NCBI GenBank assembly: GCA_029261035.1
Contig: JAJDCD010000004.1
Span: forward strand, 68,765 to 132,764
Source: Candidatus Omnitrophota bacterium
Lineage (GTDB): Bacteria; Omnitrophota; Omnitrophia; Omnitrophales; JACROU01
Direction: 5' to 3'
DNA: 64,000 bases
Within the stretch, counting starts at the first letter, position 1. Each line of letters starts with the position of its first letter. A program made the translations under genes and the position numbers. Positions 3,028 through 56,714 of the stretch are shown here, one piece after another. The notes under the pieces are model-generated. The model was not told where the DNA came from and did no database searches. It saw only the letters and a list, made by a program, of their open reading frames with translations.

Positions 3028-3103
3028 TTTGGTCGTAATTCTATAAATACAGGAATTATGAGTGTTTAGAGATGCTTATAGAAACAGACAACGGAGGCCT
3101 CTT

Positions 3104-3742
3104 ATGTATGATGAGATATCAAATGATTTAAATGAGCAGTTTAAAGACTTTCCTAGAAAAAAGACTCCTCTATGGGGAAAAGCTATAAAAACCATTCTAG
3201 AACAGAAGAAATCTAAAGGAGAAGATATCTCTATTCAGTCTCTAGCCAACAAAGCTGGGATGAATGATAAGAACCTGTTCAACATTGTAGCTGGACGAGT
3301 TCAGGATCCCTCCTCAGATAAATTAGTCCGTATTGCTGAGGCCTTAGGCCTTTCATTCCCAGAATTAGCAGAACGAGCCATTGGTGCTTGGGAAGGTTCT
3401 GTTTTTGTCTGTGGTTTCTCTCAGAGAGGTTATATCGACTACAGCCAGCATGGATTTGCGATTCAATCCTTAACTCCTCCAGGGGCAACTAATCGCGATT
3501 TTTTTGTAGGGCTAATGATGATTAAACCTTTTAAAGAAATGAAAAAGTGGAAGTTTGATAAAAATGCAACCATTTTCATGTTTGTCGAAAATGGAACCTT
3601 AGAAATAACGATTGGAAATCAAATCAAAACTGTAAATGCAAACGAATCCATTTACTTTGACGGCGGAATCTCACATAAAATAAAAAACGTAGACTCGATA
3701 GAAACAAAAATATTCCTAGTCACCCGCCCCCCCATGCATTAA
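3104..3742 (+). CDS. XRE-family HTH transcriptional regulator with C-terminal cupin domain
   Basis: HTH_XRE-like segment (SIQSLANKAGMNDKNLFNIVAGRVQDPSSDKLVRIAEALGLS) plus a cupin-like C-terminus. The ORF opens at 3062, but ATG 3104 has a GGAGG RBS 8 nt upstream. Confidence 0.7.
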   Translation: MYDEISNDLNEQFKDFPRKKTPLWGKAIKTILEQKKSKGEDISIQSLANKAGMNDKNLFNIVAGRVQDPSSDKLVRIAEALGLSFPELAERAIGAWEGSVFVCGFSQRGYIDYSQHGFAIQSLTPPGATNRDFFVGLMMIKPFKEMKKWKFDKNATIFMFVENGTLEITIGNQIKTVNANESIYFDGGISHKIKNVDSIETKIFLVTRPPMH

Positions 3743-3800
3743 AAAACAGAAGTCAGACGACAGAGGTCTGAAGACAGACATTACTTTTTATTTAAATCGC

Positions 3801-3996
3801 ATCGTCACACATGTGACGATACTGTTACCCTACAAAGCAAAAGTGCTCGATGCACTTTTGCTTTGTACCCTCTCACATCCCAGCGAAATAAGAAAAGCCC
3901 ATGGAACGTTCTCCACCGCGAGTTCACAACAGTGACAGTCACCGTAGGTGACAGTCACTGTTGTGCTGTCTGAGCGCTGGAGAACGTTCCATGGGC
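3801..3996. repeat. Copy A of a ~196-bp multi-hairpin structured repeat element
   Basis: Hairpin 1 (3801-3820, 8-bp stem). Hairpin 2 (3833-3865, 14-bp stem, GCTCGATG in the loop region). A 19-bp perfect outer stem (3897-3915 / 3978-3996) encloses the conserved core CCGCGAGTTCACAA (3916-3929), an inner 19-bp hairpin (3925-3965), and TTGTGCTGTCTGAGCGC (3961-3977). The same architecture and core recur at 35398-35592. Confidence 0.6.
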
Positions 3997-4019
3997 TGCA
4001 ACCCAACTCTAAATAGCTC

Positions 4020-4841
4020 TTACTTAACTAAACCATGCTTCTGACACATAGCCCTCAAAACCTCTTTCAACTTCTCAACCCCACTCATTTTATTGAGCAC
4101 CTCAAACCCACCTTCTCTAATACTCACAAGACGAGACGCAACATCTTCAGAAGAACTAAAAACCAAAAAGTCTTTTGGGCAATACGCTTCTCCATCTAAG
4201 AACTTCCTGATTAGTTCATCTCCCCACATATATTGCATCCTCATATCAACAATCATAAGATCGGGTTCAAACTCATTTGATATTTTAAAAGCTTCATCTC
4301 CCTGCGTAGTAAATCGAACTTCATAATCCGCATCTTCCGTATTTTGATTCAGTTCCTCCTGCAAATATTCACAAATTTCTTCTTCATCATCAACGAGTAA
4401 GATTTTAGCTTTAGGAATACCCTCTTCTACTATTGTACTTGAAGGTATTGGCACAGCATTATTTTCGAGAAGCCCTACAATACAATCATGCAAATCTTCG
4501 ATAGGATAAGGTTTATTAAAATAAGCTTTAACACTTAAAGCTTCTGATTCTTTTTTTAAAATTCCGGCCACCGATTGAACTATCAGCGGAATTTTAGGGT
4601 AAGCTAAGAGAATCTGTTTTACAGAATCCAAAACACCCATACCAGGCATATTGAGATCTAATAATACCAAACAGATATTCTCGTGAAATTCTTTTACTAT
4701 TTGAACCGCTTCTTTTCCACTTCCTGCAGTTTGAATCGTGTATCCCTTAGGGTTCAGCAATTGGTTCAACATAAAGATAATATCCTTATCATCATCACAG
4801 ATCAAAATTGTATTTTTATTCGGCATCCTTTTTCCTTCCAT
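4020..4841 (-). CDS. Response regulator with two tandem receiver domains and no output domain
   Basis: Two REC signatures (ILICDDDKDI... and ILLVDDEEEICEYL...). The ORF extends to 4853. Start ambiguous between 4841 and 4826. Confidence 0.7.
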   Translation of the reverse strand: MEGKRMPNKNTILICDDDKDIIFMLNQLLNPKGYTIQTAGSGKEAVQIVKEFHENICLVLLDLNMPGMGVLDSVKQILLAYPKIPLIVQSVAGILKKESEALSVKAYFNKPYPIEDLHDCIVGLLENNAVPIPSSTIVEEGIPKAKILLVDDEEEICEYLQEELNQNTEDADYEVRFTTQGDEAFKISNEFEPDLMIVDMRMQYMWGDELIRKFLDGEAYCPKDFLVFSSSEDVASRLVSIREGGFEVLNKMSGVEKLKEVLRAMCQKHGLVK

Positions 4842-14444: not shown

Positions 14445-15149
14445 TTAAACAGCAATCGTTCTAGCTAAATCACCTTCTTGAATAGAAATAGGTCCATCCT
14501 GAACCACATCACAAGATGCTAAAGAATCATAAAGTTTTGTCACACTCACAGTGGCAACACCTTGTCCTTCGTGAACAATTTGAAATTGGTCTTCAATTTG
14601 AACACCGTCTAATTTCCCAACACCCACAACCACAAAACGATATTCTTTATTCACTAAAATAACTTTACCTTCAATAGCATTGAAATTTTCTTCTTGGGTG
14701 GCTATAGGCTCAACTTCTGTCGCTGTATTAATAAAAGAAGACCCAACAGAAACAGGTCCTGCTAAAGCGGAAGTTGTTGATTCAGGATCAAACAATTGAA
14801 CTCTTGCTTCTAAATCTTTTTTAGAATTTTCAAGTAACATGATCTTGTCTTCCCACTGCTTCACTTTACTTTTCCATTCCGCCAACTGCTCCCTATTTTT
14901 AACAATCTCTTGGGTTTTCATTTCAACAGATGATTCTAATTCTAATATTTGACTTTCAAAGCCTTGCTTAGATTCTTTTAACTGCAAATCTTTTTTAGCA
15001 ATTCTTTCTTGAAGTTCTTCAACTTGGTTCTTAAAAACAACACTTGAATTTTTCTCATTCTCAAGCTGTGTATATAAGTAAACAGTTCCAACGACAGAAC
15101 TCGCTGACAATACAAACAGAAAAATAATGCTCCCGTATAACAATCTCAT
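14445..15149 (-). CDS. Membrane-anchored coiled-coil protein with C-terminal beta-rich domain (unknown function)
   Basis: 234 aa. N-terminal TM, ~100 aa of heptad-like coiled coil, C-terminal beta-domain (RFVVVGVGKLDGVQIEDQFQIVHEG...). Confidence 0.45.
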   Translation of the reverse strand: MRLLYGSIIFLFVLSASSVVGTVYLYTQLENEKNSSVVFKNQVEELQERIAKKDLQLKESKQGFESQILELESSVEMKTQEIVKNREQLAEWKSKVKQWEDKIMLLENSKKDLEARVQLFDPESTTSALAGPVSVGSSFINTATEVEPIATQEENFNAIEGKVILVNKEYRFVVVGVGKLDGVQIEDQFQIVHEGQGVATVSVTKLYDSLASCDVVQDGPISIQEGDLARTIAV

Positions 15150-18409: not shown

Positions 18410-19222
18410 ATGGCTTTTGACTACTCTATCTTATATAATAACATCATGTTAGATATTTTTAGAAATAATACAAAACTCATTATTTGGCTTATAGTTGGTT
18501 CCTTCTGCTTATGGGGTGTTGGCTCTGGTGTCATGTCAGGAACTTCAGGAGGGAATGCTGCAGGGAAAGTCTTCAACAAGAAAGTTTCAAACCAAGAATT
18601 CAATCGGTACCTAAAGATTGTCCAAATTTTTGGTGGTTCTGACATTGAAGAATTTACTCAAACACAATTAGAATCTCAGGCTTGGAAGCAAATCGCCTTG
18701 GCTATGAAGGCTGATCAATTAGGCTTCAAAGTTTCGAATGAAGAAGTTGGCACTCAAATCATGTCCAAAATGTCTGAACAAGGGGCCTTCGATCAAAATT
18801 TCTATGAAAGATGGGTTAAAAATGTTTTCAAAGAAAACCCAAGATCTTTCGAAGAAATGATGAGGCAAATGATAGCAACTGAAAAAATGATGGCTGCCAA
18901 TGTATCAACAACAACAATTTCTGATTTAGAACTCCAAGAACGCTATAAAAAAGCTTACCCTAACTCCAACGACGAGGATTATGATAAAGTAAAATCTGGA
19001 TATCGAATGGCTACGGAAGAGATATTACAGTTGGAATCTCGTGGTAATTTTATTAATGAAATTCTTGAAGAAGCTCAAATAGAAAGTTTTATCGAAAAAG
19101 AAAGAATTGCCGAAGAAGAGATGGAAAGTAAAATGAAACTACAGACGCCAGGGTCTCGTCTTTCAACTTACGTACCCAAACCAGATACTCTTTCGAAAGA
19201 AGAAACCTCAGAACCCAAATAA
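18410..19222 (+). CDS. SurA-N/PpiD-like periplasmic chaperone domain protein (no PPIase domain)
   Basis: 270 aa. N-terminal TM, then a PpiD/SurA N-terminal-like segment. The start may be an internal Met (18446). Confidence 0.5.
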   Translation: MAFDYSILYNNIMLDIFRNNTKLIIWLIVGSFCLWGVGSGVMSGTSGGNAAGKVFNKKVSNQEFNRYLKIVQIFGGSDIEEFTQTQLESQAWKQIALAMKADQLGFKVSNEEVGTQIMSKMSEQGAFDQNFYERWVKNVFKENPRSFEEMMRQMIATEKMMAANVSTTTISDLELQERYKKAYPNSNDEDYDKVKSGYRMATEEILQLESRGNFINEILEEAQIESFIEKERIAEEEMESKMKLQTPGSRLSTYVPKPDTLSKEETSEPK

Positions 19223-34501: not shown

Positions 34502-35359
34502 TTAAGCCTTAACTTGCTTTTCTCGAGAAACAAACCAAACAAAAGCACCCATAAGAATCATAAAACCCCAGCCCATGAGGCCTCCGTAATACTCTCCTCC
34601 ACCCCAAAATAAAGTTGGATCTGGATTTTTCTCTGCAATAAAATTAACGTCTACTTTTAGGAACATCACTGCTCCTGCATGAATTCCTATAGCTAAGTAA
34701 AGAGCACGCGTACGCAAATAGGCATATTGAAGAACAAAACCAAACAAAAGCAAACCTACGAATGATGGCAGAATATTTTGCCAATCCCCTAAAGGTTTAA
34801 GCCAAGAAAGTAAAACACTAAAACTATCAGAAATTGTTGGCTCTACCCACTCTTGTTTCGATCCTCTAAAAAAATGAACGATAGCATAAAAAGCATTGGT
34901 GATAATAAAACTCCAAGCACGATGCATGAATTTACAAAGAGAAAGAAACACAAATCCTCTAAAAAAGAATTCTTCCAATGTAGCAACAAGCAACCCTGTT
35001 CCTAACGCTTTAAATACTCTCTCTGGAATACGATCCCATTTAACACGAAGGCCAATATCATAAACACCAAAAAAAGACTCAAAAATAGCCATTCCAAAAA
35101 GAATACCAGAACCTAATAGAATCCCAATCCCAATAAGACGCCACCAATTTGTATCCGCCGTAAAACCAAAACGCCTAAACGCTCCTAAGTCTTTACGAAT
35201 AAATAGTGCTATAGCAACAAATCCACTAATCATAATCAAACGAGAAAGAACTCTTTCAAAAGGATACTTATCCTGAACTATCGAATAAATAAACGGTGCC
35301 AAAACCGCAGGAATGACTACAACTGCAGCTAAAGCTAATAATAATTTCAAAATTTTCAT
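34502..35359 (-). CDS. CPBP family intramembrane metalloprotease (CAAX protease-like)
   Basis: EEFFFRG motif 1 and FxxxH motif 2 in a polytopic membrane protein. True start MKILKLLLAL at 35359. The 35482 ORF extension is spurious read-through into repeat element B. Confidence 0.75.
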   Translation of the reverse strand: MKILKLLLALAAVVVIPAVLAPFIYSIVQDKYPFERVLSRLIMISGFVAIALFIRKDLGAFRRFGFTADTNWWRLIGIGILLGSGILFGMAIFESFFGVYDIGLRVKWDRIPERVFKALGTGLLVATLEEFFFRGFVFLSLCKFMHRAWSFIITNAFYAIVHFFRGSKQEWVEPTISDSFSVLLSWLKPLGDWQNILPSFVGLLLFGFVLQYAYLRTRALYLAIGIHAGAVMFLKVDVNFIAEKNPDPTLFWGGGEYYGGLMGWGFMILMGAFVWFVSREKQVKA

Positions 35360-35397
35360 GCTAAACCTTTCGTTATTTATAGTTTTTGGTGCAAACG

Positions 35398-35592
35398 GAG
35401 CGTCATATACATGACGCTCACAGCAAATACCAAGGGCAAAAGAAGGGCTCGATGTACTTCTTTTGCCATCCCCCTCCAACACACACCCAAATGTTGTTCA
35501 AATTAAAGGAAAACGAAGTGTGCTCGCCGCGAGTTCACAAAAATAGATTCTCAATTTTTGTGCTGTCTGAGCGCCGAGGATACTTCGTTTTC
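35398..35592. repeat. Copy B of the ~196-bp multi-hairpin structured repeat element
   Basis: Hairpin 1 (35398-35419, 9-bp stem). Hairpin 2 (35435-35467, 11-bp stem, loop contains GCTCGATG). Imperfect 19-bp outer stem (35508-35526 / 35575-35592) enclosing CCGCGAGTTCACAA (35527-35540), an 8-bp inner hairpin, and TTGTGCTGTCTGAGCGC (35558-35574). Same order and spacing as copy A. Confidence 0.6.
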
Positions 35593-35601
35593 TGGTACAA
35601 C

Positions 35602-36054
35602 CTAAACAGATAAAGTTAGTTCCAGTTCAACAAAAGCATTCATTGGTAAACTATTAACCCCTACAGCAGAGCGAGCATGTTTGCCCCGTTCTCCAAAAAC
35701 TTCTAAAAATAGATCCGATGCCCCATTAATTACTTGTGGATGCTCTGTGAACCCTTCCATACTCTGAACATAACCCACCAACCGTATAATCCTGTCCACT
35801 TTATCTAAACTCCCTAAAAACCCTCTTATAACACCCAACGCATTTAGTGCAGCAATTCGAGCTGCTTGCTGTCCTCGATCATTCTTATCAGCCCCACCTT
35901 TACCCGTAAAGATATCTCCATTAGCAATTTTAGGCAAAACACCACTTAGAAATACAAGGTTACCCACCTGAGTTATTGGAACATAGGAGCCTAGAGGCTT
36001 CGGAGGTTCTGGAATAAACAAACCCATCTCTTCTATTTTCTGTTCTGCACTCAT
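35602..36054 (-). CDS. ridA: RidA/YjgF family reactive-intermediate deaminase
   Basis: YjgF/chorismate-mutase-like fold motifs. Likely start at MSAEQKIEE (36054). Confidence 0.8.
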   Translation of the reverse strand: MSAEQKIEEMGLFIPEPPKPLGSYVPITQVGNLVFLSGVLPKIANGDIFTGKGGADKNDRGQQAARIAALNALGVIRGFLGSLDKVDRIIRLVGYVQSMEGFTEHPQVINGASDLFLEVFGERGKHARSAVGVNSLPMNAFVELELTLSV

Positions 36055-36764
36055 ACTGTCTTCTCCGCAATAATCATAGTACAAATACCAAAAGTAAATG
36101 ATTTCGTATTAACTTTTTTAAATCCTGCATCTTTTATTTTTTGTTCTAATTCAGAAACTCCATAAAATTTCTGAATCGAACTAGAAAGAAATTTATAAGC
36201 ATTCCATGACCCAGAAAAAAAACGGCCTACGAATGGAAGATAAATATTAAGGTAGGGAAAATAAAGAGCCTTCATCCACCAAGACGTTGGGCGCGTTAAT
36301 TCTAAAATAACGAACTTCCCCTTCGAACTCAATACGCGATAACTCTCTTGAAACAAAGAATCTAAATCTGCAATACTTCTTAAAACAAAAGCTGAACTAA
36401 TTAAGTCAAACTGATCATCTTCATAGGGAAGTTTTGGTAACTCAACAACATCTAATTTAGCTTTATTTCCCAATCGCTGCTCTGCCTGTTTTAACATTTC
36501 TTTCGAAAAATCAGCCCCAACTGCTTTTTCGAAAGGGTGAAAACGAGTGATGTCATACAAAAAAACACCTGAACCCGTTCCGATATCAAGAACAGAGTTC
36601 ATCCAAGGCTCTACAGACTGACGAACCGCCTTACGCCTCCAACCATCATCTCTTTTAAAACTTAAAAACTTATTGAGAAAATCATATTTAGGAGCAATCA
36701 CATCAAAGATTTGATTAATTTCCGAAGGATGTTTTGTGTATTCTGGAAGTTGTGTTGAATTCAT
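36051..36764 (-). CDS. ubiE: Demethylmenaquinone methyltransferase (UbiE/MenG family)
   Basis: SAM-binding motif VLDIGTGSGVF. UbiE family. Adjacent to mqn genes. Likely start at MNSTQL (36764). Confidence 0.8.
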   Translation of the reverse strand: MNSTQLPEYTKHPSEINQIFDVIAPKYDFLNKFLSFKRDDGWRRKAVRQSVEPWMNSVLDIGTGSGVFLYDITRFHPFEKAVGADFSKEMLKQAEQRLGNKAKLDVVELPKLPYEDDQFDLISSAFVLRSIADLDSLFQESYRVLSSKGKFVILELTRPTSWWMKALYFPYLNIYLPFVGRFFSGSWNAYKFLSSSIQKFYGVSELEQKIKDAGFKKVNTKSFTFGICTMIIAEKTV

Positions 36765-36780
36765 AGGATCCTGCTTTGGG

Positions 36781-37884
36781 CTAATCACAATGCCTAATAA
36801 TTTTATAATTTGTATCTCGTTGAGCAGCTTTATAACCTGCTTTTTTAATGAGACGAATAAATTCATCCACGTTAGTGTCATTTACGATACCCGTCGCTTT
36901 AACAACCCTTTCTTCCATCAAGATACCACCCATATCGTTAGCACCAAAAGCCAAAGCTGTTTGAGCCATCTTAACCCCTTCTGTAACCCAACCTGTTTGG
37001 AAATTAGGAATGTTATCCATCATCAAACGACCCACAGCCATGGTGCGAACATAATCTTCTCCTCCTGCCATAGGAAGATGACTCATTCTAGGGGTCCCCG
37101 GAGAAGAAAAACTCCAAGGGATAAATGCTCGAAATACTTCTGTTTCATCTTGCAGCTGTCTCAATTTTAAAAAATGGATCACTCGTTCTTCGATCGTTTC
37201 TACATGACCATACATCATTGTCGCAGAAGCTTTGAGTCCTACATTATGGCACGATCTCATAATATCTAACCAACGATCTGCAGAAGCTTTCTTAGGGCTA
37301 ATTTCCTTTCGAACGCGATCTACTAAAATTTCAGCTCCACCTCCAGGAAAAGAATTTAATCCAGCTGCTTTTAATTCTTCAAAAACTTGTTCCGCTGTCA
37401 TTTTTTCAGATTTACACAAATAATCAATTTCTTCTGGGGACATGGAGTGTATGTGTACATGGGGATACTTCTCCATAACTTTTTGAAATAGATTCACATA
37501 GTGTTTTAATCTTAAATCGGGGTTGATCCCTCCCTGAAACAACACTTGAGTGCCTCCCAAAGCTGTTAAATCATCCAAGTTTTGGTATACCTCGTCGAGC
37601 TCAGTCACATAACCCTTATCAGAACGTGGCGGAGTATAAAAGGCACAAAATCCACAATCAATAATACACACATTGGTTGTTGCTACATTGCGATCAATAA
37701 CAAAGGTAACAATACCTTCTGGGTGCAACTCGTTTCTTACTTGAGTTGCCGCATGACCTAGCAAAGTTAAATCTGCATTGAACAGCAAGATACCTTCTTC
37801 TAAACTTAATCGATCTCCACCTAACCTTTTTTCAATAATGCTTTCTACTACTGTTGAATCAACCGTTGATGAACGTTCTATCAT
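36781..37884 (-). CDS. Futalosine-pathway radical SAM enzyme (MqnC/MqnE family)
   Basis: CxxxCxxC (CIIDCGFCAF) and MqnC/MqnE-type C-terminal region. I cannot distinguish MqnC from MqnE by eye. Confidence 0.75.
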   Translation of the reverse strand: MIERSSTVDSTVVESIIEKRLGGDRLSLEEGILLFNADLTLLGHAATQVRNELHPEGIVTFVIDRNVATTNVCIIDCGFCAFYTPPRSDKGYVTELDEVYQNLDDLTALGGTQVLFQGGINPDLRLKHYVNLFQKVMEKYPHVHIHSMSPEEIDYLCKSEKMTAEQVFEELKAAGLNSFPGGGAEILVDRVRKEISPKKASADRWLDIMRSCHNVGLKASATMMYGHVETIEERVIHFLKLRQLQDETEVFRAFIPWSFSSPGTPRMSHLPMAGGEDYVRTMAVGRLMMDNIPNFQTGWVTEGVKMAQTALAFGANDMGGILMEERVVKATGIVNDTNVDEFIRLIKKAGYKAAQRDTNYKIIRHCD

Positions 37885-38741
37885 AGCGCAAACTCCAATT
37901 CTCTCAGTTGGCTTACCCACCCTAGTTTGTAAGCCTTTTCAAAAAATAAGTATAGCCCCTGAATTGCTTTCGAATTTAATCGATATTCAAAACCATCTAA
38001 ATATTCAACCAACTCTTCATCCGTCAAAGCAGATAAGTTGGGCATCTCTTCTAAACAACGCTGTTTTAAACCTATTAAATTTGATTTATTCTGTTCAACT
38101 TGGGCTCGCATTAAACGAGTAAAAGACTGAACAGTCTCTTTATTCTTCTCAAAATATTCTTTACGAACAAGCCATAGAGCAAAACAAAAAGGTCTCTCTA
38201 ACCAAGCCCACCACAAAGATGATAAATCAAAACACTGAATATCTGTTTCTTCAAGCTGTTTTCTTAAAAGCAATGCTTTATCACCAATAACCAAACAGGG
38301 GCGTCCTGAACGAATAACATCCCCTTCATCCTCTTCTTTCAAAACGGTAAGCTTTGCATTTACTTCAAAACACTCTTTAAGCAAAATATCTAAAAGTACA
38401 ATTGAGCTCGAGGTTTCTTTTGTGACAAAAATTTCTTTACTCTCTAAAGACTTAATAGAATCTTTCGTAAAAAGAATAACGCTTCTACAAATCTGCTGGG
38501 TACTTAACCCTAAGTCTGGAAGAATATAATAAGAATCACTATTTTTGGCATATTCAATTGAAGATGCCAAAGTAATGTCCACCTTTCCCTCTCGAATACT
38601 CTGATTCAAGACCGAAGGTACGGCATCTAAAAAATTTAACTCACAACAATCCAAAGATTCTTCTAGCCCAAAGAAATAAGGGATCGCATTAATATACGAA
38701 GGCTTTCCAACTCTGATTTGTGTTTTAATCTTAGATTGCAT
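37881..38741 (-). CDS. Menaquinone biosynthesis protein of the MqnA/MqnD family (PF02621-like)
   Basis: 286 aa. N-terminal SYINAIPY (ylN..P-like) motif. Sandwiched between the two Mqn radical SAM genes. Leans MqnA (chorismate dehydratase) but is ambiguous. Confidence 0.6.
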   Translation of the reverse strand: MQSKIKTQIRVGKPSYINAIPYFFGLEESLDCCELNFLDAVPSVLNQSIREGKVDITLASSIEYAKNSDSYYILPDLGLSTQQICRSVILFTKDSIKSLESKEIFVTKETSSSIVLLDILLKECFEVNAKLTVLKEEDEGDVIRSGRPCLVIGDKALLLRKQLEETDIQCFDLSSLWWAWLERPFCFALWLVRKEYFEKNKETVQSFTRLMRAQVEQNKSNLIGLKQRCLEEMPNLSALTDEELVEYLDGFEYRLNSKAIQGLYLFFEKAYKLGWVSQLRELEFAL

Positions 38742-38781
38742 AAAGGTTTTAATTTAATCCTCTTGTAAGCCTTGTTGGTAT

Positions 38782-39861
38782 TTAATAACTAGAGTTTACT
38801 AGCTTAGGGACTCGATTAGCGGTCTCAATAATTCGCACTAACTCATCTCTCTTAAGAAAAACTGGGGTTTTAGCCCCTGCATTGTGCATAATCTTCTCAT
38901 CGATAGCCATTCCCCCTAAATCATCCACTCCAAAAGACAACAAAACCTGTGCGAGCTTCTTTCCCAGAGAGGTCCAAAACGCTTTAATATGAGGAAAATT
39001 ATCTAGATAAATACGTCCAACAGCATAAACTTTCAAATCGGTAAAGGCATCGACAAATGGGATATGGTCTAACTCCGTATTATCTGGATGAAAAGCCAAA
39101 GGAATAAAAGAATTAAACCCCCCAGTCACATCCTGAACTTTTCTCAAACGATCCATATGGTCCACAATGTCCTCTTCGTTTTCAATGTGCCCATAAAGCA
39201 TTGTCGCGTTACTCTTCAATCCAGTTTCGTGAGCCAATTGATGAATCTCCAACCATTTGTCTCCAGCTATTTTTCCTTTAGCTATTTCAGGACGGACACG
39301 TTCAGAAAAAATTTCTGCGCCTCCACCCGGCATACCGCAAAGACCCGCATCTTTTAATTGTTTTAGAACTTCAGAATATGAAAGTTTAGTCTGACGAGAA
39401 AAATGATCAATTTCAACAGCTGTAAATGCCTTCACAAAAATATCTGGATTATAATTTCGGACCAAACTCATCATTTCCAAAATGTATTCAAAGGACGCTT
39501 TGTAAGTGATTCCACCCACGATGTGGACTTCATTAATATGATAGTCTTGATGTGCTTGCTTTACTTTCTCTTCAATTTCTTTCAGCGATAATAGATAAGC
39601 GTCCGCGTCTCCTTCTTTTCTAGAAAAAGCGCACAACTGACAACTCAAATAACAGATATTCGTATAATTCATATTGAGATAAGCGCTATAACAAACCTCA
39701 TCCCCAGCAATTTTCTTTCTAACAAAATCGGCTAAGTATCCAACCGTATTAATCTCATTCGAACGCATGAGTTCAACACCATCCTCAAAAGTAATTCTTT
39801 CTCCTCCGAGAACTTTATCTATAATTTTTTTGTGTTTGGAGTTCTTCCACAAATTCTTCAT
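38782..39861 (-). CDS. Futalosine-pathway radical SAM enzyme (MqnE/MqnC family), second paralogue
   Basis: CxxxCxxC (CYLSCQLCAF). Paralogous to 36781-37884. The ORF extends to 39900 and overlaps ubiX. Confidence 0.75.
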   Translation of the reverse strand: MKNLWKNSKHKKIIDKVLGGERITFEDGVELMRSNEINTVGYLADFVRKKIAGDEVCYSAYLNMNYTNICYLSCQLCAFSRKEGDADAYLLSLKEIEEKVKQAHQDYHINEVHIVGGITYKASFEYILEMMSLVRNYNPDIFVKAFTAVEIDHFSRQTKLSYSEVLKQLKDAGLCGMPGGGAEIFSERVRPEIAKGKIAGDKWLEIHQLAHETGLKSNATMLYGHIENEEDIVDHMDRLRKVQDVTGGFNSFIPLAFHPDNTELDHIPFVDAFTDLKVYAVGRIYLDNFPHIKAFWTSLGKKLAQVLLSFGVDDLGGMAIDEKIMHNAGAKTPVFLKRDELVRIIETANRVPKLVNSSY

Positions 39862-40480
39862 CGCTTCCCCACGGTTTATACAAATTATGATTAACATCAA
39901 AACTATCTAAAATTTTACCCACAACAAAATCGATCAAATCATTAATATTTTTTGGTTTATGATAAAACCCTGGATTTGCTGGCAACACGGTAACGCCTAA
40001 TCTAGATAGTTTTAACATATTTTCTAAATGAATAGCACTAAAAGGAGTTTCTCTAGGAACAATCAAGAGTTTTCTACCTTCTTTAAGAGTCACATCGGCA
40101 GAACGAGAAATAAGATTGGATGAAATTCCGTTAGCAACTTCTGCCAACGTATTCATAGATGTTGGGCAAATAATCATCCCCCGTGTCTTAAAGGTCCCAC
40201 TGGCACTTTTTGCACTAACATCTCGATAACGGACCAGCTCTATTCTTTCTGCTATTTCTTTCGAAAATAATGATTCTAAAAATTCTGGAGTTTCCTGTGG
40301 TGGGAGTTCTAAATCCATTTCTTTCTCAAATACAAGTCGCGCATGAGGTGACATCATAAATATAACAGGCTCGCTTTGTTCTGCCAAAACGCGAACCAAA
40401 CGCAACCCGTACTGCAACCCACTCGCTCCTGTTAACGCAACAATAATAGGATCTTTTTTCACTCTCAACTCCCTCTTCAT
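39815..40480 (-). CDS. ubiX: Flavin prenyltransferase UbiX (prenylated-FMN synthase)
   Basis: 221 aa. Flavoprotein motif IIVALTGASG, UbiX/Pad1 family. Partners the adjacent UbiD-family gene. Confidence 0.85.
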   Translation of the reverse strand: MKRELRVKKDPIIVALTGASGLQYGLRLVRVLAEQSEPVIFMMSPHARLVFEKEMDLELPPQETPEFLESLFSKEIAERIELVRYRDVSAKSASGTFKTRGMIICPTSMNTLAEVANGISSNLISRSADVTLKEGRKLLIVPRETPFSAIHLENMLKLSRLGVTVLPANPGFYHKPKNINDLIDFVVGKILDSFDVNHNLYKPWGSDEEFVEELQTQKNYR

Positions 40481-40492
40481 AGAAGGTTTATA

Positions 40493-41350
40493 TTAAAATA
40501 TTAAATCCAAAAACGTACTGACTAATAAGATTAAACTAAAACATACATTAGGAATAAAAAATATTTTTGGGATAAATGACAGGTTATGCCCTCTCACCTG
40601 AAATTGCTGCTGAAATATTAAAATACCCGCAACAACAAAACCCACCCAATAATATACACCTAAATGATTCATTGAGCCTAAAACAAAAAGGCTAATCAGA
40701 GTAATTCCTTGAAACAAGCTGGATACTCTTAGACTGATCGTTTTCCCAAAACGAGAAGGAAGAGAAAAAAGCCCTTCCCTACGATCAAATCCTTCATCCT
40801 GCAAAGAGTAAATTATATCAAATCCTGCAACCCAAAATAAGACTGCTATAACGAGTGGCACAGGATACCAAGAAAAGCTCCCCTCTGACGCTATCCATCC
40901 TCCCATAGGAGAAATAGCCAAAATAGACCCTAAATAGAGATGTGTCCCCCACGTGAAACGCTTGAAAAGTGGGTAGGTACAGACCATAAACAAAGGAATG
41001 AAGGACAGCAGCAAACAGAGCTTATTTAATGCAAATACAGAGTAAAAATAAAACCCACAGCAAGAAATTAAACAGCAGAGTAAAAACTGCTTAGATATTA
41101 AACCCTGCGACAAAGGCCATATGGAAGTTCTTGGATTCTTTTGATCATAGCGAATATCTAATAAACGGTTCATGATCATTCCAACAGTTCTTAAACTAAC
41201 CATGGCCACCGTAACCCAAATAAATATGTGCAGCCTTGGCCAGCCCCCTTCCGCTAGTACCAAACCTAAGTAGGCAAAAGGAAGAGCAAATAACGTATGC
41301 TCAAACTTAATTGTTTCTAAAAAAAGTTTTAGCTGGTTCATTTGAATCAA
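40493..41350 (-). CDS. UbiA-family polyprenyltransferase (MqnP-like, menaquinone branch)
   Basis: 285 aa polytopic membrane protein with UbiA-type Asp-rich regions (DIRYD..., DxxxD-like FDIIYSLQDEGFD). Confidence 0.7.
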   Translation of the reverse strand: MIQMNQLKLFLETIKFEHTLFALPFAYLGLVLAEGGWPRLHIFIWVTVAMVSLRTVGMIMNRLLDIRYDQKNPRTSIWPLSQGLISKQFLLCCLISCCGFYFYSVFALNKLCLLLSFIPLFMVCTYPLFKRFTWGTHLYLGSILAISPMGGWIASEGSFSWYPVPLVIAVLFWVAGFDIIYSLQDEGFDRREGLFSLPSRFGKTISLRVSSLFQGITLISLFVLGSMNHLGVYYWVGFVVAGILIFQQQFQVRGHNLSFIPKIFFIPNVCFSLILLVSTFLDLIF

Positions 41351-42811
41351 CTACTTCAACTTTCCATTAAAACCATACTCACTCCAACGATCCGTAATCT
41401 TTTGCTGAATCTCTTCGGACATCTTCATTTCTTCAGGCCAATCTCTCAACATCCCTTCTTCAGGAAGTTTATGAGTGACATCTACCCCCATTTTCCCACC
41501 CCATAGATGTTGGGATGCAGAGTGATCGAGTTCATCCACTGGCCCTTCAGAAAAAACGATATCCCGCTTGGGATCCACATTCGCAAAAACCTTAAAAGCA
41601 ACTTCTTTCAGGTCATGAATATTAGTGTCATGATCAAAAACAAAAACAAATTTAGAAAACATGAGCTGTCCCAAACCCCAGATCGAATTCATCATTTTCT
41701 TAGCTTGATTCGGATAAGTCTTTTTAATGGATACTAAAATACAATTATGAAAAACCCCTTCCCAGGGTAAATGGATATCTACCACCTCAGGAAGAATCTT
41801 CCGAAGCATCGGAATAAAAATACGTTCTGTTGCCTTCCCTAGATAACAATCTTCCATAGGCGGCTTACCGACTATCGTTGTCATGTAAACAGGGTTTTTT
41901 CTATGAGTCATACATGTAATATGAAACGCTGGAAAATCCTTTGCTGGCGAGTAATATCCTGTATGGTCCCCAAAAGGCCCTTCTTCACGAAGGTCATCCA
42001 AATCCACATAACCTTCCAAGACAAACTCACTCTCTGCCGGAACTTCTAAATCTACGGTTTTACATTTAACGAGCTCTAAAGGTTTTTTTCTCAGAAAACC
42101 AGCAAACATAAACTCGTCGATATCTTTGGGAAGAGGTGCTGTTGCCGAATATACGGTAATAGGATCTGCTCCTATAGCCACCGCCACAGGCATTTGTTTA
42201 CTCTTCGCATCCTTTAAATTTCTAAAATGCTCTGCTCCATCTTTATGAATCTGCCAATGCATCCCCGTTGTTTTATTATCAAACACCTGCATACGATACA
42301 TGCCGACATTTCTATTTCCAGAAATAGGATCTTTAGAAATTACCAAAGGAAGTGTAATGAATTTACCTGCATCCTTAGGCCAACATTGAATCACAGGTAA
42401 TAGGTCTAACATAGGCCCCTCTTTAATGACAACCTCTTGACAAGGAGCTGAAGAAACAATTTTTGGAGTCGCTTTGGAAAGTTCAATAGCTTTAGGTAAA
42501 AGCCTCAATTTGTCCATCAAGGTTTCAGGAGTTTTAACTTGAGTAAAATCCTCTAAACGATCGGAGATTTCTTCATAAGCCTCAACACCTAAGGCCCCTA
42601 GCATCCGATTATGAGAAGCGAAAGTGTTTATAAGTAAAGGAAAAGAACTCCCTTTAACCTTTTCGAAATAAAGAGCGGGACCATCCTTCTTAACCACACG
42701 ATCCGCAATTTCAGTGACTTCTAAAATAGGGTCTACTTCTGCGGCAACGGTATGCAATTCGCCTAGCTTTTTAATGTGTTCAATATAATCACGCAGATTT
42801 TGAAATGCCAT
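41351..42811 (-). CDS. UbiD-family prFMN-dependent decarboxylase (MqnL-like)
   Basis: 486 aa. UbiD family conservation. Adjacent to ubiX and the UbiA-family gene. Confidence 0.8.
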   Translation of the reverse strand: MAFQNLRDYIEHIKKLGELHTVAAEVDPILEVTEIADRVVKKDGPALYFEKVKGSSFPLLINTFASHNRMLGALGVEAYEEISDRLEDFTQVKTPETLMDKLRLLPKAIELSKATPKIVSSAPCQEVVIKEGPMLDLLPVIQCWPKDAGKFITLPLVISKDPISGNRNVGMYRMQVFDNKTTGMHWQIHKDGAEHFRNLKDAKSKQMPVAVAIGADPITVYSATAPLPKDIDEFMFAGFLRKKPLELVKCKTVDLEVPAESEFVLEGYVDLDDLREEGPFGDHTGYYSPAKDFPAFHITCMTHRKNPVYMTTIVGKPPMEDCYLGKATERIFIPMLRKILPEVVDIHLPWEGVFHNCILVSIKKTYPNQAKKMMNSIWGLGQLMFSKFVFVFDHDTNIHDLKEVAFKVFANVDPKRDIVFSEGPVDELDHSASQHLWGGKMGVDVTHKLPEEGMLRDWPEEMKMSEEIQQKITDRWSEYGFNGKLK

Positions 42812-42878
42812 CAGGTCTCCTTAATAAAGACAGTGTGGAACCATAGAAAGGTTATATGTAAAAGAGGTATATTACTGG

Positions 42879-42926
42879 AAAAAAAGAGGTCAGGCTACTT
42901 TATTATTAATCTGAAAAAAGTAGCCT
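42879..42926 (-). terminator. Rho-independent terminator downstream of the TPR gene
   Basis: 8-bp stem aggctact/agtagcct (42893-42926) with a minus-strand T-run (plus-strand A7 at 42878-42888). Confidence 0.5.
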
Positions 42927-42937
42927 GTTCCCTTTAA

Positions 42938-44020
42938 TTATTCGCTAATTGCTGGTGTAGACTGAGGGGACGACTGCGGTGCTGGAATATTGTCAATCAG
43001 AGACTGAAAACCAGGCTCTTTTCTCAATTCCTCGAAATTCTTATCTTGTTTTACTAATTGAGCTAGATTAGGGTCTTGTCTTAAAGCAATCCCCAACTTC
43101 TGAATTGCTTCTATATTCTTACCTTGCGCGGCCAATACCGCTCCTAACCCATAATTCGCCTGAGCTGATCCTGGCTCAATCTCTAAGCTTTTGATATAAC
43201 TAGCAATAGATTGCTCCATATCCTTAGACAGAAAATAAGCTTCCCCCATATTTTGATAAGCAATGCTATATTTAGAATTTATCTCAACAGCTTGAGTATA
43301 ATATTCTATAGCTCTCATGTAATCTTTTTTTCCGTTCGCATAAGCGACACCTAAATTATTATAAGCTGAAGCAATCTGTGGATTAATTTCAATAGACTTC
43401 AAAGCAAACTGAATAGCATTATCATAATCTTTTTCAAAAATACTGATCACTGCAAGATCATTGTAGGCATTCGCATTAGGACTAATATCAACAGCCGTTC
43501 TTAAATAACGGTGAGCTGACAAATAATCTTTCTGAAGAATAAACATCCGTCCTATTCTTAAAAAATCGGAAACAAATCGAGGTGAGTGATTTGAAAGTTC
43601 ATAAAACATTTCACTAGCCTTAACTGTACGCCCTTGAAGCAAAAGAAGAACACCGGCATTATAATAAGAGCGAGAGAATTCAGGATCAATCTCAATCGCT
43701 TTAAGATACGATGCTACCGCTTCATCAATCTTCTGCTGTCTCTCAAACAAACTCCCCTTTAAAAAATGAATTGAAGCAGAGTTTGGATTCATTTGCATAC
43801 AATCTGCTATAAGAACCTCTGCTAACTGCACATCTCCATCAGAAATTGCCTGTATCGTATACAACAACTTTCGTTCAAATTCTTTAGATTCATCCGCATA
43901 CAACACACTTCCCACCGACTGAACTATTAGAAAACTAAAAAAGAACAAAGGGACTATTAAAAATTTAAAATAACGACTCATAAGAACTCTCCTTTTCTTA
44001 ACCCTAAATTGTTTAAACAT
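42938..44020 (-). CDS. Secreted TPR repeat protein
   Basis: 360 aa. Signal peptide/TM, then 8+ TPR motifs (AYNNLGVAY, AYQNMGEAY ...). Confidence 0.6.
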   Translation of the reverse strand: MFKQFRVKKRRVLMSRYFKFLIVPLFFFSFLIVQSVGSVLYADESKEFERKLLYTIQAISDGDVQLAEVLIADCMQMNPNSASIHFLKGSLFERQQKIDEAVASYLKAIEIDPEFSRSYYNAGVLLLLQGRTVKASEMFYELSNHSPRFVSDFLRIGRMFILQKDYLSAHRYLRTAVDISPNANAYNDLAVISIFEKDYDNAIQFALKSIEINPQIASAYNNLGVAYANGKKDYMRAIEYYTQAVEINSKYSIAYQNMGEAYFLSKDMEQSIASYIKSLEIEPGSAQANYGLGAVLAAQGKNIEAIQKLGIALRQDPNLAQLVKQDKNFEELRKEPGFQSLIDNIPAPQSSPQSTPAISE

Positions 44021-44051: not shown

Positions 44052-44396
44052 CTAAACTCTAAGACGATTCACCTTACGTTCTAATCGGTCCAGCCGATCC
44101 ATTTTTCTTTCTAAATCATCCACCTTCGAAAGTCTATTTTCCATCCTTTGTAGACGCTCTACTTGGTTAGATATTCGATTCATTTTTCTTTCCAAGCTGT
44201 CCATTTGACTCTTCATTCTTTTCAAACGGTAGTCAAAATTATTCATTTTTTGAGACTGATTACTTCGATTTCTAATCTGCTCTGCTGCTAGAGCTTCAAG
44301 ATCTGTATCTTGAGCATAAACTAAATTGGAATTACTAACAAATACAACAGTAAATAACAATAGATAAAAATAAGCTCTCATTACACCCCCTCGCAA
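44052..44396 (-). CDS. Small secreted coiled-coil repeat protein
   Basis: 114 aa. Signal peptide. Internal LERKM(D/N)RL... repeats, also visible as DNA repeats (catttttctttc twice). Strong RBS GAGGGGG. Confidence 0.45.
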   Translation of the reverse strand: MRGGVMRAYFYLLLFTVVFVSNSNLVYAQDTDLEALAAEQIRNRSNQSQKMNNFDYRLKRMKSQMDSLERKMNRISNQVERLQRMENRLSKVDDLERKMDRLDRLERKVNRLRV

Positions 44397-44571: not shown

Positions 44572-44607
44572 AAAAAAAGCCCTCAACACTGGGGTTGAGG
44601 GCTTTTT
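44572..44607. terminator. Bidirectional rho-independent terminator (rpsU 3' end)
   Basis: A7 run, 9-bp GC-rich stem gccctcaac/gttgagggc (44579-44602), then T5. Serves rpsU on the minus strand. Confidence 0.7.
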
Positions 44608-44904: not shown

Positions 44905-45798
44905 TCATCCTCTAGGGTGAAATTGGGTGTGAATTCCTTTGAGACGGTCTTTGGAAACATGCGTATATATTTGAGTTGTGCTGATATCTGCGTGCCCCAA
45001 GAGTTCTTGAACAATTCTAAGATCTGCCCCACCTTCAAGCAAATGTGTGGCAAATGAATGGCGAAATGTATGTGGGGTTATTCTCTTCTTAAGATGCGCT
45101 TCCTTCGTGTACTTTTTAATAATTTTCCAAAACGATTGTCGGGTTAGCTTTTTTCCCTGACGATTCAGAAACAACTCAGATGAAGGAGACTTAACCTTAC
45201 TTCGGATATGTTTAATATAACTTTGAATAACCTCATTCGCTATTCGACCTAACGGGATCATTCTCTCCTTCCCCCCTTTACCCATACACTTCAAAATTGA
45301 AGCTTCAAAATTAAGATCCGCTAATTTTAAATTAACAATCTCTGATACACGCATCCCTGTAGCATAAAACAGCTCTAGAATAGCTCTGTCACGCACTTTC
45401 TTACGAGAACCACCCGAAGTAGCTTTAATCATCTTTTCAACCTCGACAAAGGATAAAAAGTCCGGTAGCTTTTTCCATGTTTTCGGAGATTCCAAAGTGG
45501 AAGTAATGTCTTTTTTTAAATAACGCTCTCGAACTAGAAAACGATGAAAAATCTTTACAGACACAAGGTGTCTCGCTATAGATGTCGTAGCTAAACCTTT
45601 ATTCTTTAGCTCCATTAAAAAAGCATGAATTTTTTGAGGGTTTACTTTTTCCAATTCGACTAATTTACTTTTTCTTAAAAAAGTCACATAATCCCGGAGA
45701 TCTCTTTGATAAGCCATTAAACTATTTTTAGCCAATAACTTCTCAACAGAAAGATATTCCATAAAAAGTTGTATATAAGAATCCAACCGATCAGCCAT
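44905..45798 (-). CDS. xerD: Tyrosine recombinase XerD/XerC family
   Basis: 297 aa. RHRY catalytic residues (HTFRHSFATHLL...LGHADISTTQIYTHV). 8 bp downstream of ligA. Confidence 0.8.
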   Translation of the reverse strand: MADRLDSYIQLFMEYLSVEKLLAKNSLMAYQRDLRDYVTFLRKSKLVELEKVNPQKIHAFLMELKNKGLATTSIARHLVSVKIFHRFLVRERYLKKDITSTLESPKTWKKLPDFLSFVEVEKMIKATSGGSRKKVRDRAILELFYATGMRVSEIVNLKLADLNFEASILKCMGKGGKERMIPLGRIANEVIQSYIKHIRSKVKSPSSELFLNRQGKKLTRQSFWKIIKKYTKEAHLKKRITPHTFRHSFATHLLEGGADLRIVQELLGHADISTTQIYTHVSKDRLKGIHTQFHPRG

Positions 45799-52776: not shown

Positions 52777-53136
52777 TTATTTAGTGGTTTTGGCTTGAGC
52801 TTCTTTAATCCAGTTCAGCCACCCTCCGTAAGATTCTATTGAAGAAGGAGAAACTATATTACCGGAAGATAAGAGTGGAGCATCTATTTTAACAATCCGT
52901 ATTTCTCTAGGTAATTGAAAATCAACATTAGCCGACTTCATCATTTCCTCTAGACGTCCTGGAGATTTCAAAAAAGCCACTTTGAATTTTAACTGTTTTT
53001 GCTCTTCTGAAAATTGTGAATATAGTTTTTCTTTTTTATCTATTTCATAAGATAATTTAACTAAATTCACTTTTTGAAATACATACCCCAAAAGCAAACT
53101 AGTAATGAATAGGATCGCAAAAAAAGCTCTTATCAT
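52777..53136 (-). CDS. ftsL: Cell division protein FtsL-like
   Basis: 119 aa bitopic protein (N-terminal TM plus coiled coil) between rsmH and ftsI. Confidence 0.6.
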   Translation of the reverse strand: MIRAFFAILFITSLLLGYVFQKVNLVKLSYEIDKKEKLYSQFSEEQKQLKFKVAFLKSPGRLEEMMKSANVDFQLPREIRIVKIDAPLLSSGNIVSPSSIESYGGWLNWIKEAQAKTTK

Positions 53137-56705: not shown

Positions 56706-56714
56706 AATGAATAC

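Follow-up and report, generated by a model that had tools for sequence, protein, structure and literature searches.

The described systems closest to the element treated here are the repetitive extragenic palindromes (REPs), with the bacterial interspersed mosaic elements (BIMEs) and REPINs, which go with the Y1 HUH transposase RAYT, the attC sites of integrons, and the intrinsic terminators. Intergenic hairpin repeats are normally species-specific and have conserved stems. The element described here, called the cored hairpin, was found in two copies (A and B) in a 64,000-nucleotide stretch of contig JAJDCD010000004.1 from a Candidatus Omnitrophota bacterium, hereafter the window. In this element the usual conservation is inverted, which is unusual: the arms are free, while an asymmetric core of 21 bases is constant and identical across phyla, from the Omnitrophota-like metagenome-assembled genome (MAG) to gut Atopobiaceae and high-GC soil bacteria. 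A two-tier architecture, covarying stems with DNA-type pairing, a rule of position relative to genes, turnover and, in the window, T-rich tails characterize the family. It is tentatively regarded, somewhat short of an even chance, as a small non-autonomous DNA element, similar to REPs or MITEs (miniature inverted-repeat transposable elements), that comes and goes at the 3' ends of genes and acts as a terminator.

A preliminary description, made from the letters of the window, had reported four consecutive hairpins and a partner copy, and all of these features were found in place. Copies A (3801-3997) and B (35398-35593) comprise the same four hairpins in the same order, namely hairpin 1 (H1), hairpin 2 (H2), a C-rich spacer and then a two-tier hairpin, in which a long outer stem surrounds CCGCGAGTTCACAA, an inner hairpin and TTGTGCTGTCTGAGCGC. 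The features are as follows.

3753-3789, unstranded: small terminator-like hairpins with T runs on both strands, between the XRE-cupin stop codon and copy A and outside the repeat
3801-3820, unstranded: copy A H1, 8 bp, loop ACAT
3831-3867, unstranded: copy A H2, a stem of 16 bp without mismatch and a TCGAT loop that lies in the conserved GCTCGATG
3868-3895, unstranded: copy A spacer, C-rich and then A-rich on the plus strand
3896-3997, plus (strand of the core as written): copy A cored hairpin, with the adjoining gene on the minus strand
3896-3915 and 3978-3997: copy A outer arms, 20 bp, perfect
3916-3925: copy A 5' core, CCGCGAGTTC
3916-3929: copy A motif CCGCGAGTTCACAA
3925-3965: copy A inner hairpin, 19-nt arms with one A.A mismatch
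3961-3977: copy A motif TTGTGCTGTCTGAGCGC
3965-3977: copy A 3' core, GCTGTCTGAGCGC
35398-35419, unstranded: copy B H1, 9 bp, loop ATAC
35435-35467, unstranded: copy B H2, 13 of 14 loop-anchored positions paired (one G.T) and one G.A mismatch, loop TCGAT within GCTCGATG
35468-35507, unstranded: copy B spacer, C-rich on the plus strand
35508-35593, plus: copy B cored hairpin, the largest module of this copy
35508-35526 and 35575-35593: copy B outer arms, with two G.T pairs and one G.G mismatch
35527-35536: copy B 5' core
35536-35562: copy B inner hairpin
35562-35574: copy B 3' core
35527-35540 and 35558-35574: copy B motifs, identical to those of copy A

The lengths given in the preliminary description for copy A required small corrections. 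H2 is indeed a hairpin but of 16 rather than 14 bp, and the outer stem is perfect, as described, but has one A-T pair more than the 19 bp assigned to it. The inner hairpin has the 19-nt arms attributed to it, interrupted by the A.A mismatch. The two motifs were correctly described as unchanged between the copies. Within the window CCGCGAGTTCACAA and TTGTGCTGTCTGAGCGC occur only at these two sites, even when 2-3 mismatches are allowed, with shuffle expectations of 0.14 and 0.07, respectively. Both copies fold far more stably than shuffled sequence: the RNAfold z scores are -14.7 (A) and -8.1 (B) for the plus strand and -14.1 (A) and -4.5 (B) for the minus strand, and none of 200 shuffles was as stable. 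The minus-strand fold energies are -124 kcal/mol for copy A (211-nt region) and -76 kcal/mol for copy B (216-nt region). Moreover, when the inverted repeats of the whole window are ranked by strength, the top three all belong to these two copies.

When the copies were compared without gaps, anchored on loops or core, the core was identical at 31 of 31 bases and the outer 5' arms at only 6 of 20 positions. Changes on both sides that keep the pairing number 2 in H1, 6 in H2, 11 in the outer stem (one to G.T) and 2 in the inner stem. The earlier statement that every stem differs between copies yet stays complementary thus holds for the compensation, but the stems of H1 and H2 are not unrelated. 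Those of H1 have CGTCA/TGACG in common, and those of H2 have GCAAAAG/CTTTTGC in common, offset by a 3-nt indel that is mirrored in both arms. The H1 and H2 stems of one copy are thus related to those of the other. The four hairpins within one copy are unrelated to one another. A small open reading frame (ORF) across H2 on the minus strand (AK-VHRALLL) was rejected as a by-product of the conserved loop and palindromic stems; in copy A it has no start codon, and the similarity stops outside the hairpin. The H1 and H2 motifs were found in the window only and in no other fetched locus. Together with the C-rich spacer, H1 and H2 turn the 200-bp unit into a BOX-like mosaic, and the modular, BOX-like mosaic of hairpins proposed at the outset is a fair description of it.

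The family beyond the window consists of the right-hand module only (3896-3997 and 35508-35593). The exact core pattern GAGTTCACAAN{5,35}TTGTGCTGTCTGAG gave no matches in genome, metagenome and viral contig collections, because it over-specified the bottom of the inner stem, which covaries. A relaxed pattern restricted to the loop-proximal bases, GCGAGTTCN{15,45}GCTGTCTGAGCGC, matched 51 metagenome loci and no viral contig. In about 20 of these loci (L numbers below are our handles for fetched loci), complementary flanks of 15-34 bp surround the core, which encloses a hairpin of its own as in the window; the remaining matches lack complementary arms and were set aside as chance matches. Further copies, which the preliminary description proposed to count, exist for this module, as about 20 distinct relatives in metagenomes. 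The carriers include high-GC gut contigs of Thermophilibacter/Atopobiaceae (assigned via a flanking alpha-amylase), soil contigs of 61-72% G+C and one organism of 48% G+C.

All members share one layout, in which nearly perfect, copy-specific outer arms of 7-32 bp surround a constant asymmetric core, GCGAGTTC ... GCTGTCTGAGCGC, with a variable inner hairpin between its two halves. The consensus of the core is 5'-(arm) N CGC GA G UU C (hairpin) G CUGU CU GA GCG N (arm')-3', which is also written with an optional C at either end, as (C)CGC ... GCG(C). The constant core amounts to 21 bases, and family-wide conservation of the arms is limited to the 1-6 bp next to it. The whole two-tier hairpin is 50-125 nt long, and the conserved unit of about 45-75 nt is gene-free.

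In an alignment of 21 distinct copies, 93.5% of the proposed pairs are Watson-Crick or wobble pairs, and there are 129 both-sided changes. None of 500 shuffles reached this level of pairing, and sliding the partner by 1-3 columns lowered it to 35-46%. A covariance model built on this alignment, R1, gives all copies 50-90 bits, with 70.3 for copy A (E = 1e-14) and 66.7 for copy B (E = 8e-14). It also picks up three further diverged copies, L126-, L117- and L135+, the last of which bears a compensatory change in the short core helix, from CGC/GCG to GGC/GCC. Alignment of the receiver protein adjoining copy A had fetched one true orthologue only (40% identity) and 79 unrelated receiver loci. The latter served as a negative control, and R1 gave no match in these 1.29 Mb of unrelated bacterial loci.

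The cored hairpin does not correspond to a described RNA family in the searches made. At the gathering threshold, Rfam 15 matched only two transfer RNAs (tRNAs) in the whole window and, in the 23 element-bearing loci, only a flavin mononucleotide (FMN) riboswitch, a cobalamin riboswitch and a tRNA, all away from the element. With E up to 10, copies A and B gave only weak hairpins of the microRNA type, and the L096 and L087 copies only generic hairpins. The Rfam/Infernal search proposed in the preliminary description thus placed no copy in a known family. A BLAST search with one high-GC copy found no match in plasmids and phages. A full-text literature search for the core sequence returned nothing relevant, and a general search returned only reviews of REPs and MITEs.

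Cored hairpins also occur as diverging pairs 38-200 nt apart, each facing its own gene (L126:311-546, L117:1247-1435 and L135:5964-6294). In addition, two copies from the 48%-GC organism, at L087:9890-10050 (-) and L135:5890-6030 (-), are followed by a second conserved stretch, about 110 nt long (GCGRAGYCGGCCGCGGCTT...AGCCTGTCCGGCGRTGAGGACAMAAAGCCTAACGGCGASTGAGTAA). It stops a few bases before the start codons of unrelated genes, which from the ORF translations are Rieske-like in one case and RluB-type pseudouridine synthase-like in the other. This block had no Rfam match and may represent a larger composite repeat or a leader.

The position of the element relative to genes follows a strict rule. 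For 12 of the 21 copies that could be assessed, a gene on the strand opposite to the core has its stop codon 3-22 nt past the 3' arm, and for two more the distance is 55-57 nt. Only three copies have a same-strand stop equally close on the other side, and all three lie between convergent genes. Among copies between tandem genes, those that obey the rule are all antisense (winB, L095, L104, L119 and L105, and, from flank sequence, L114 and L129). The genes beside the two window copies are these.

3062-3742, plus: helix-turn-helix (HTH)-cupin gene, the XRE-cupin gene, with its stop at 3742, converging on the copy A side
4020-4826, minus: tandem-receiver (REC) response-regulator gene, 268 amino acids in the public call, stop codon 4020-4022
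34502-35369, minus: Rce1-like CAAX protease gene, with its ATG at 35369, 29 nt past copy B H1
35602-36084, minus: YjgF/RidA-like gene, stop codon 35602-35604, 9 nt from the copy B right arm

Copy A lies between the converging ends of the HTH-cupin and tandem-receiver genes. The convergent setting given in the preliminary description is correct, but the distance from the REC stop codon to the right arm is 22 nt rather than about 24. Copy B is intercistronic, with a minus-strand gene on either side (YjgF-like and Rce1-like). Each copy closes a long minus-strand operon: the REC gene is the last of a HemW-like/CN-hydrolase/REC operon, and the YjgF/RidA-like gene ends a menaquinone operon of the futalosine type, after which copy B comes.

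Congeners differ in whether they have the element at one orthologous site, where it has been gained and lost. In Thermophilibacter-like genomes, the spacer between an amylase gene and an M20-dipeptidase gene contains it in L096, L102, L132, L141 and L142, and with diverged arms in L090. In L144 the same site has a plain hairpin instead, and in L136/L137 two copies of a different hairpin repeat. The presence of a different repeat in the same converging-gene spacer makes this spacer a hot spot for different hairpin families. R1 found no copy in about 79 kb of the non-carrier loci L136-L140.

Two side observations concern these Thermophilibacter-like loci. The other hairpin repeat stands in two tandem copies at L136:11590-11715 (GCGGCYTCCTGACGGTTYTG...GAAAACGTCAG...GCCGC). 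About 10 kb from the amylase gene, at L136:1-348, L138:1-319 and L139:1-319 (-), there is a conserved chromosomal gene for a RAYT-type Y1_Tnp protein (PF01797) of 268 amino acids, and the cored hairpin is absent there. Just upstream of the Thermophilibacter-like Y1_Tnp gene there is a perfect hairpin of 14 bp (GACAATGGGGACGG...CCGTCCCCATTGTC).

The nature of the arm complementarity bears on whether it is kept at the level of DNA or RNA. A selected RNA helix is expected to show G.U well above A.C on one strand. Among about 480 outer-arm pairs, 435 are Watson-Crick, 19 are G.T, 6 are A.C and 19 are other combinations. However, 12 of the 19 G.T pairs come from two related copies, without which there are 7 G.T against 6 A.C. 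The apparent excess of G.T (19 against 6) thus vanishes, and the wobble-pair strand test was discarded. The outer arms reach 31 bp without a mismatch, and an indel in one arm has its mirror image in the other, both in H2 of copies A and B and between L096 and L090 at one orthologous locus. Because G.U is no commoner than A.C, the arms are long and perfect, and indels are mirrored, the complementarity looks as though it is maintained in DNA. Mutations in a single arm exist (L141 compared with L096), and therefore symmetry must be restored or selected later. In contrast, the asymmetric core never turns symmetric, which argues that its asymmetry is functional. The preliminary description had taken covariation as the sign of a selected RNA. 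The covariation itself is borne out by the 21-copy alignment, but the step to RNA is weakened, because G.U is as rare as A.C, arms of up to 31 bp are perfect, indels are mirrored, and the element comes and goes at an orthologous site. A function as structured RNA is possible, and a free-standing noncoding RNA hypothetical.

In both window copies, the big hairpin is directly followed by a T-rich run, as read on the strand that is sense for the adjoining genes. In copy A the first 10 bases of the spacer on the minus strand (3895 down to 3886) are TTTCTTATTT, a terminator-like T run, and in copy B the arm end GTTTTCC runs into the spacer as GTTTTCC-TTTAATTTGA. With a hairpin 22 and 9 nt after the stop codon and a T-rich tail, both window copies would qualify as intrinsic terminators on the minus strand, as far as can be judged from these sequence features. 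Transcription of the plus strand toward copy A would meet a separate small terminator-like hairpin before the element. The hairpins at 3753-3789 read GTCTGAAGACAGAC then ATTACTTTTT on the plus strand and TCAGACCTCTGTCGTCTGA then CTTCTGTTTT on the minus strand. Elsewhere in the window there are ordinary terminator-type hairpins at 44574-44607, 1874-1908 and 42883-42935 (e.g., AAAAAGCCCTCAAC / GTTGAGGGCTTTTT), which would act in both directions. The first two have stems of 9-14 bp and the third an imperfect arm of 22 nt, all with short loops, in comparison with the 90-100 nt of the cored hairpins.

Under the favored model of a mobile DNA element, the constant core would be the recognition site of a structure-specific protein that acts on a folded single strand, as do the HUH/Y1 RAYT transposases or the integron integrases. 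Recognition of a folded single strand would also explain the bias of orientation relative to the gene and to the direction of replication. The arms may have originated as the stem of a pre-existing terminator hairpin, into the apex of which a core unit of about 60 nt was inserted, or may instead have been lengthened afterwards by template switching within the palindrome. With its T run, the two-tier hairpin would terminate the upstream operon, protect its 3' end, or both. A role at the RNA level, as a terminator or 3'-end structure of the upstream messenger RNA (mRNA), is thus likely as a consequence. H1 and H2 would be lineage-specific extra modules of the same mosaic unit. A broader proposition, possible but on balance doubtful, is that the family represents either a new class of element in distant phyla or a new protein-binding or catalytic RNA motif at mRNA 3' ends, and in either case a widespread gene-end signal that present RNA and repeat catalogs have missed. 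If it is a new element, a unit of about 60 nt might be copied into the apex of terminator hairpins, or the palindrome might be built from flanking DNA, and the enzyme would recognize the asymmetric loop.

Several observations weigh against a mobile terminator. High-GC members have no T run, and terminator action is not evident there; stems of 20-30 bp also exceed those of the ordinary terminators of the window. By eye, neither a conserved flank motif nor a target-site duplication was seen in 20 copies. PF01797 (Y1_Tnp) is absent from the window proteins, and tblastn with the Thermophilibacter RAYT found none in the window or in the element loci, so a link between this RAYT and the element was rejected. 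The sole RAYT encountered, that of L136, L138 and L139, sits in loci that lack the element. The window contains only 2 copies in 64 kb. Two copies, L087 and L135-, break the position rule and are sense-oriented upstream of genes. Finally, the perfect arms could stem from very strong selection on an RNA helix, such as an RNase III substrate, and the sample of mismatches behind the argument for DNA is small (7 G.T and 6 A.C once the related pair is set aside).

The main rival is a cis-acting, non-mobile RNA element of the upstream mRNA, that is, a protein-binding site, an RNase III-type processing or stability signal or an unusual terminator, of which the core would be the protein contact. Such a signal in the 3' untranslated region accounts equally well for the position rule and the constant core. 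The place and orientation of the element relative to the upstream gene are fixed, across phyla the helices covary around an invariant core, and a T-rich tail follows the hairpin in the window. By inspection, the core can also form tandem G.A/A.G pairs by the CGC/GCG helix, as is typical of protein-binding RNA loops. This explanation is disfavored only because of the pairing statistics, with G.U not enriched over A.C, the perfect long arms with their mirrored indels, and the patchy and unstable distribution. Gain and loss at an orthologous site within a genus fit horizontal spread better than a conserved host signal, and no Rfam family matches. We consider it unlikely, though a serious competitor.

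Less probable still is the possibility that the copies are two paralogous small RNA (sRNA) genes on the plus strand, in which H1, H2 and a C-rich single strand (CCCUCUC... / CCCCCUCC...) that could pair with Shine-Dalgarno sequences would be followed by the big hairpin, which would form the 3' structure. The fact that both copies keep the four hairpins in order and at their spacing, the conserved composition of the unpaired C-rich spacer, and the wobble pairs of copy B, which favor the plus strand (z = -8.1 against -4.5), are all consistent with this view. TATAGT-like and TATTTA-like boxes were also seen by eye upstream of H1. However, a consensus promoter scan found nothing around copy A; near copy B it gave only two sites, both distant and one of them on the other strand. 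The big hairpin has no U tail on the plus strand, and a plus-strand terminator-like hairpin precedes copy A. Elsewhere the big hairpin always occurs without H1 and H2, and the rule that the family lies antisense to the adjoining gene does not fit an sRNA.

It is very improbable that the element is a small self-cleaving ribozyme or another kind of catalytic RNA, the active site of which would lie in the internal loop that is conserved between variable helices. The roughly 13 constant nucleotides that are unpaired or flank a loop between covarying helices, and a distribution that is patchy across phyla like those of twister, hatchet and pistol, would suit such an RNA. Nevertheless, no Rfam ribozyme family matches with E up to 10, and the hammerhead consensus (CUGANGA ... 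GAAA) and the loops of the hairpin ribozyme are absent by inspection. The helices are also far longer and more perfect than needed, with arm complementarity of the DNA type.

The two copies might instead be directly repeated recombination sites (attL/attR or attC-like) that bound an insert of 31.6 kb, as their shared orientation, their identical stretches of 14 and 17 nt, the tRNA-Glu gene within the interval and a tyrosine recombinase gene at 44905-45798 could suggest. The gene content of the interval effectively refutes this reading, to which we give hardly any probability: it consists of core genes only (mreBCD/PBP2/RodA, the purine pathway, serine hydroxymethyltransferase and NrdR) of uniform composition. 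Furthermore, the recombinase is XerC/D-like and lies outside the interval, by ligA, and in other organisms the element occurs singly at unrelated gene ends, without the attC boxes (RYYYAAC/GTTRRRY) at its stem base.

That the copies are ordinary, unrelated terminator palindromes alike by chance, as their position after stop codons and T-rich tails might allow, is refuted by the 31 identical core bases at two sites (0.07-0.14 expected per motif) and by the same core and architecture in about 20 other loci with no R1 match in the 1.29 Mb control.

The window has a G+C content of 36.9% and a negative GC skew in every 2-kb bin from 1 to 64000. Nearly all of its genes are on the minus strand; the plus strand has only two gene-like ORFs (3062-3742 and 18410-19222) and one tRNA. 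All of the window belongs to one replication arm, and its genes run in the direction of the fork. It holds housekeeping genes plus the recombinase by ligA, and no enzyme gene near the element. This recombinase (minus strand, 297 amino acids) has Phage_integrase and SAM-like N domains, lies directly downstream of the NAD-dependent DNA ligase gene, and looks like a housekeeping XerC/D rather than a mobile-element integrase. The menaquinone operon (36051-44020, minus) encodes UbiD, UbiA, a UbiX-like flavoprotein, two MqnC/E-like radical SAM proteins, an MqnD-like protein and a UbiE/MenG methyltransferase. Four minus-strand ORFs of 114-290 amino acids (14445-15149, 44052-44396, 52777-53136 and 56040-57587) have no Pfam match at E <= 1e-5 and are lineage-specific proteins among housekeeping genes.

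The lineage is poorly sampled, given that the closest relatives of the receiver protein are only 46% identical (the syntenic 2.17-Mb metagenome contig L003) and 40% identical (a Candidatus Omnitrophota MAG). The receiver protein itself is 100% identical to a public protein that occurs on an NCBI contig and on two short Logan contigs. In L003, the closest relative with synteny, the element is absent from the syntenic REC/cupin spacer. The two Logan contigs at the copy A locus end just before the element (L001, at 3368) and inside it (L002, at 1058). These breaks are probably an assembly effect of the long palindromes and not of copy number.

At this locus the long palindromes coincide with the ends of short-read (Logan) contigs, and such elements will be under-represented in short-read MAGs. 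Cored hairpins account, too, for some of the "covarying" intergenic structures that are flagged as noncoding RNAs in scans of sequence alone. The right-hand module is not lineage-specific, and the finding is more general than the sequence-only reading showed. The strict rule of place and orientation at gene ends points to a conserved and undescribed partner, either an enzyme or an RNA-binding protein, and the R1 model, specific in 1.3 Mb of controls, is a handle for finding it. If the arms are captured terminator stems, hairpin-targeted insertion would have a compact example in this family; should the core be an RNA signal, it would be a new 3'-end motif.

Among known systems, several mobile or repeated elements resemble the cored hairpin in part. 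The preliminary description had suggested IS200/IS605-derived palindrome-associated transposable elements (PATEs), based on a TTAC at 3781-3784, left of copy A. This suggestion is not supported: by eye no TTAC was seen left of copy B H1, the window and element loci contain no Y1 transposase, and the hairpins are unlike a matched pair of left and right ends. A MITE with conserved terminal repeats and target duplications, also considered there, was rejected, as the arms are copy-specific and no flanking motif or duplication was seen. The pneumococcal BOX, Neisseria Correia and enterobacterial repetitive intergenic consensus (ERIC) elements are, like the 200-bp unit, a fixed series of hairpin modules in intergenic DNA and probably co-transcribed with their neighbors. 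Their sequence is conserved along its length, and two of them, Correia and ERIC, also show TA duplications and terminal inverted repeats. In contrast, the 200-bp unit is conserved only in its loops and core, and the identity of its stems has fallen to the random level. Hairpin-targeting elements, including IS1397/ISKpn1 in REP loops, IS110/IS1111 in REPs and attC sites, and class C group II introns at terminators, likewise place a conserved unit at or inside a host hairpin at a gene end, and such placement is the proposed origin of the copy-specific arms. They are, however, of kilobase size with enzyme genes of their own, while the cored unit is only about 45-75 nt and carries no gene.

By inspection, the core does not match a number of other known motifs. 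It has CUGA followed by a helix on the 3' strand and GA after a helix on the 5' strand, but not the 3-nt bulge before the GA that a K-turn or box C/D motif would have. Nor is it a hammerhead or hairpin ribozyme, a loop E, a tRNA-like fold, domain 5 of a group II intron or a Neisseria DNA uptake sequence. The ends of Tn3 or IS4, sigma-E or sigma-54 promoters, and Nextera or SMRTbell adapters were dismissed in the same way.

The attC sites of integrons resemble the cored hairpin more closely. Both conserve structure over sequence, lie directly after the stop codon of an ORF in a fixed orientation, and carry, above a short conserved stretch that is unpaired or bulged, a terminal structure that varies; for attC, recognition is of the folded single strand, through extrahelical bases. 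The cored hairpin differs in having no R''/R' boxes (RYYYAAC / GTTRRRY) at the base of its stem and a long variable stem below the conserved part. There is no cassette array and no IntI gene, and the neighbors are housekeeping operons. An identity with attC was rejected on the grounds that the stem base is variable, that the GTT of GAGTTC is unpaired with any AAC, and that the window has one tyrosine recombinase only, which is XerC/D-like and lies 9 kb away from copy B.

The REP, BIME and REPIN elements are, like the cored hairpin, extragenic hairpins found just after genes with an orientation bias, cluster in mosaics and affect mRNA 3' ends. For both, handling in the form of folded single-stranded DNA is presumed, the strand being marked by an asymmetry. 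What is conserved differs between the two. In REPs the stems and a GTAG-type 5' tag are conserved within a genome, whereas in the cored hairpin the arms are copy-specific and the internal asymmetric core is conserved. REPs are species-specific, while the core is identical across phyla, and no RAYT was found next to any copy. Against membership in a REP/REPIN-RAYT system, the stems differ between two copies on one contig and no shared tag lies 5' of the arms. Intrinsic terminators are alike in place, a few nt to some 20 nt past the stop codon, in a hairpin that is GC-richer than the genome, and in the T-rich run of the window copies. The cored hairpin differs from them in its two tiers, its 21-nt core that is constant across phyla, its often longer arms, and the lack of a T run in high-GC members. 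Overall, the cored hairpin appears, on this comparison, to be most similar to the REPs/BIMEs and to intrinsic terminators, and it shares with attC a conserved fold of free sequence placed directly after an ORF in a fixed orientation.

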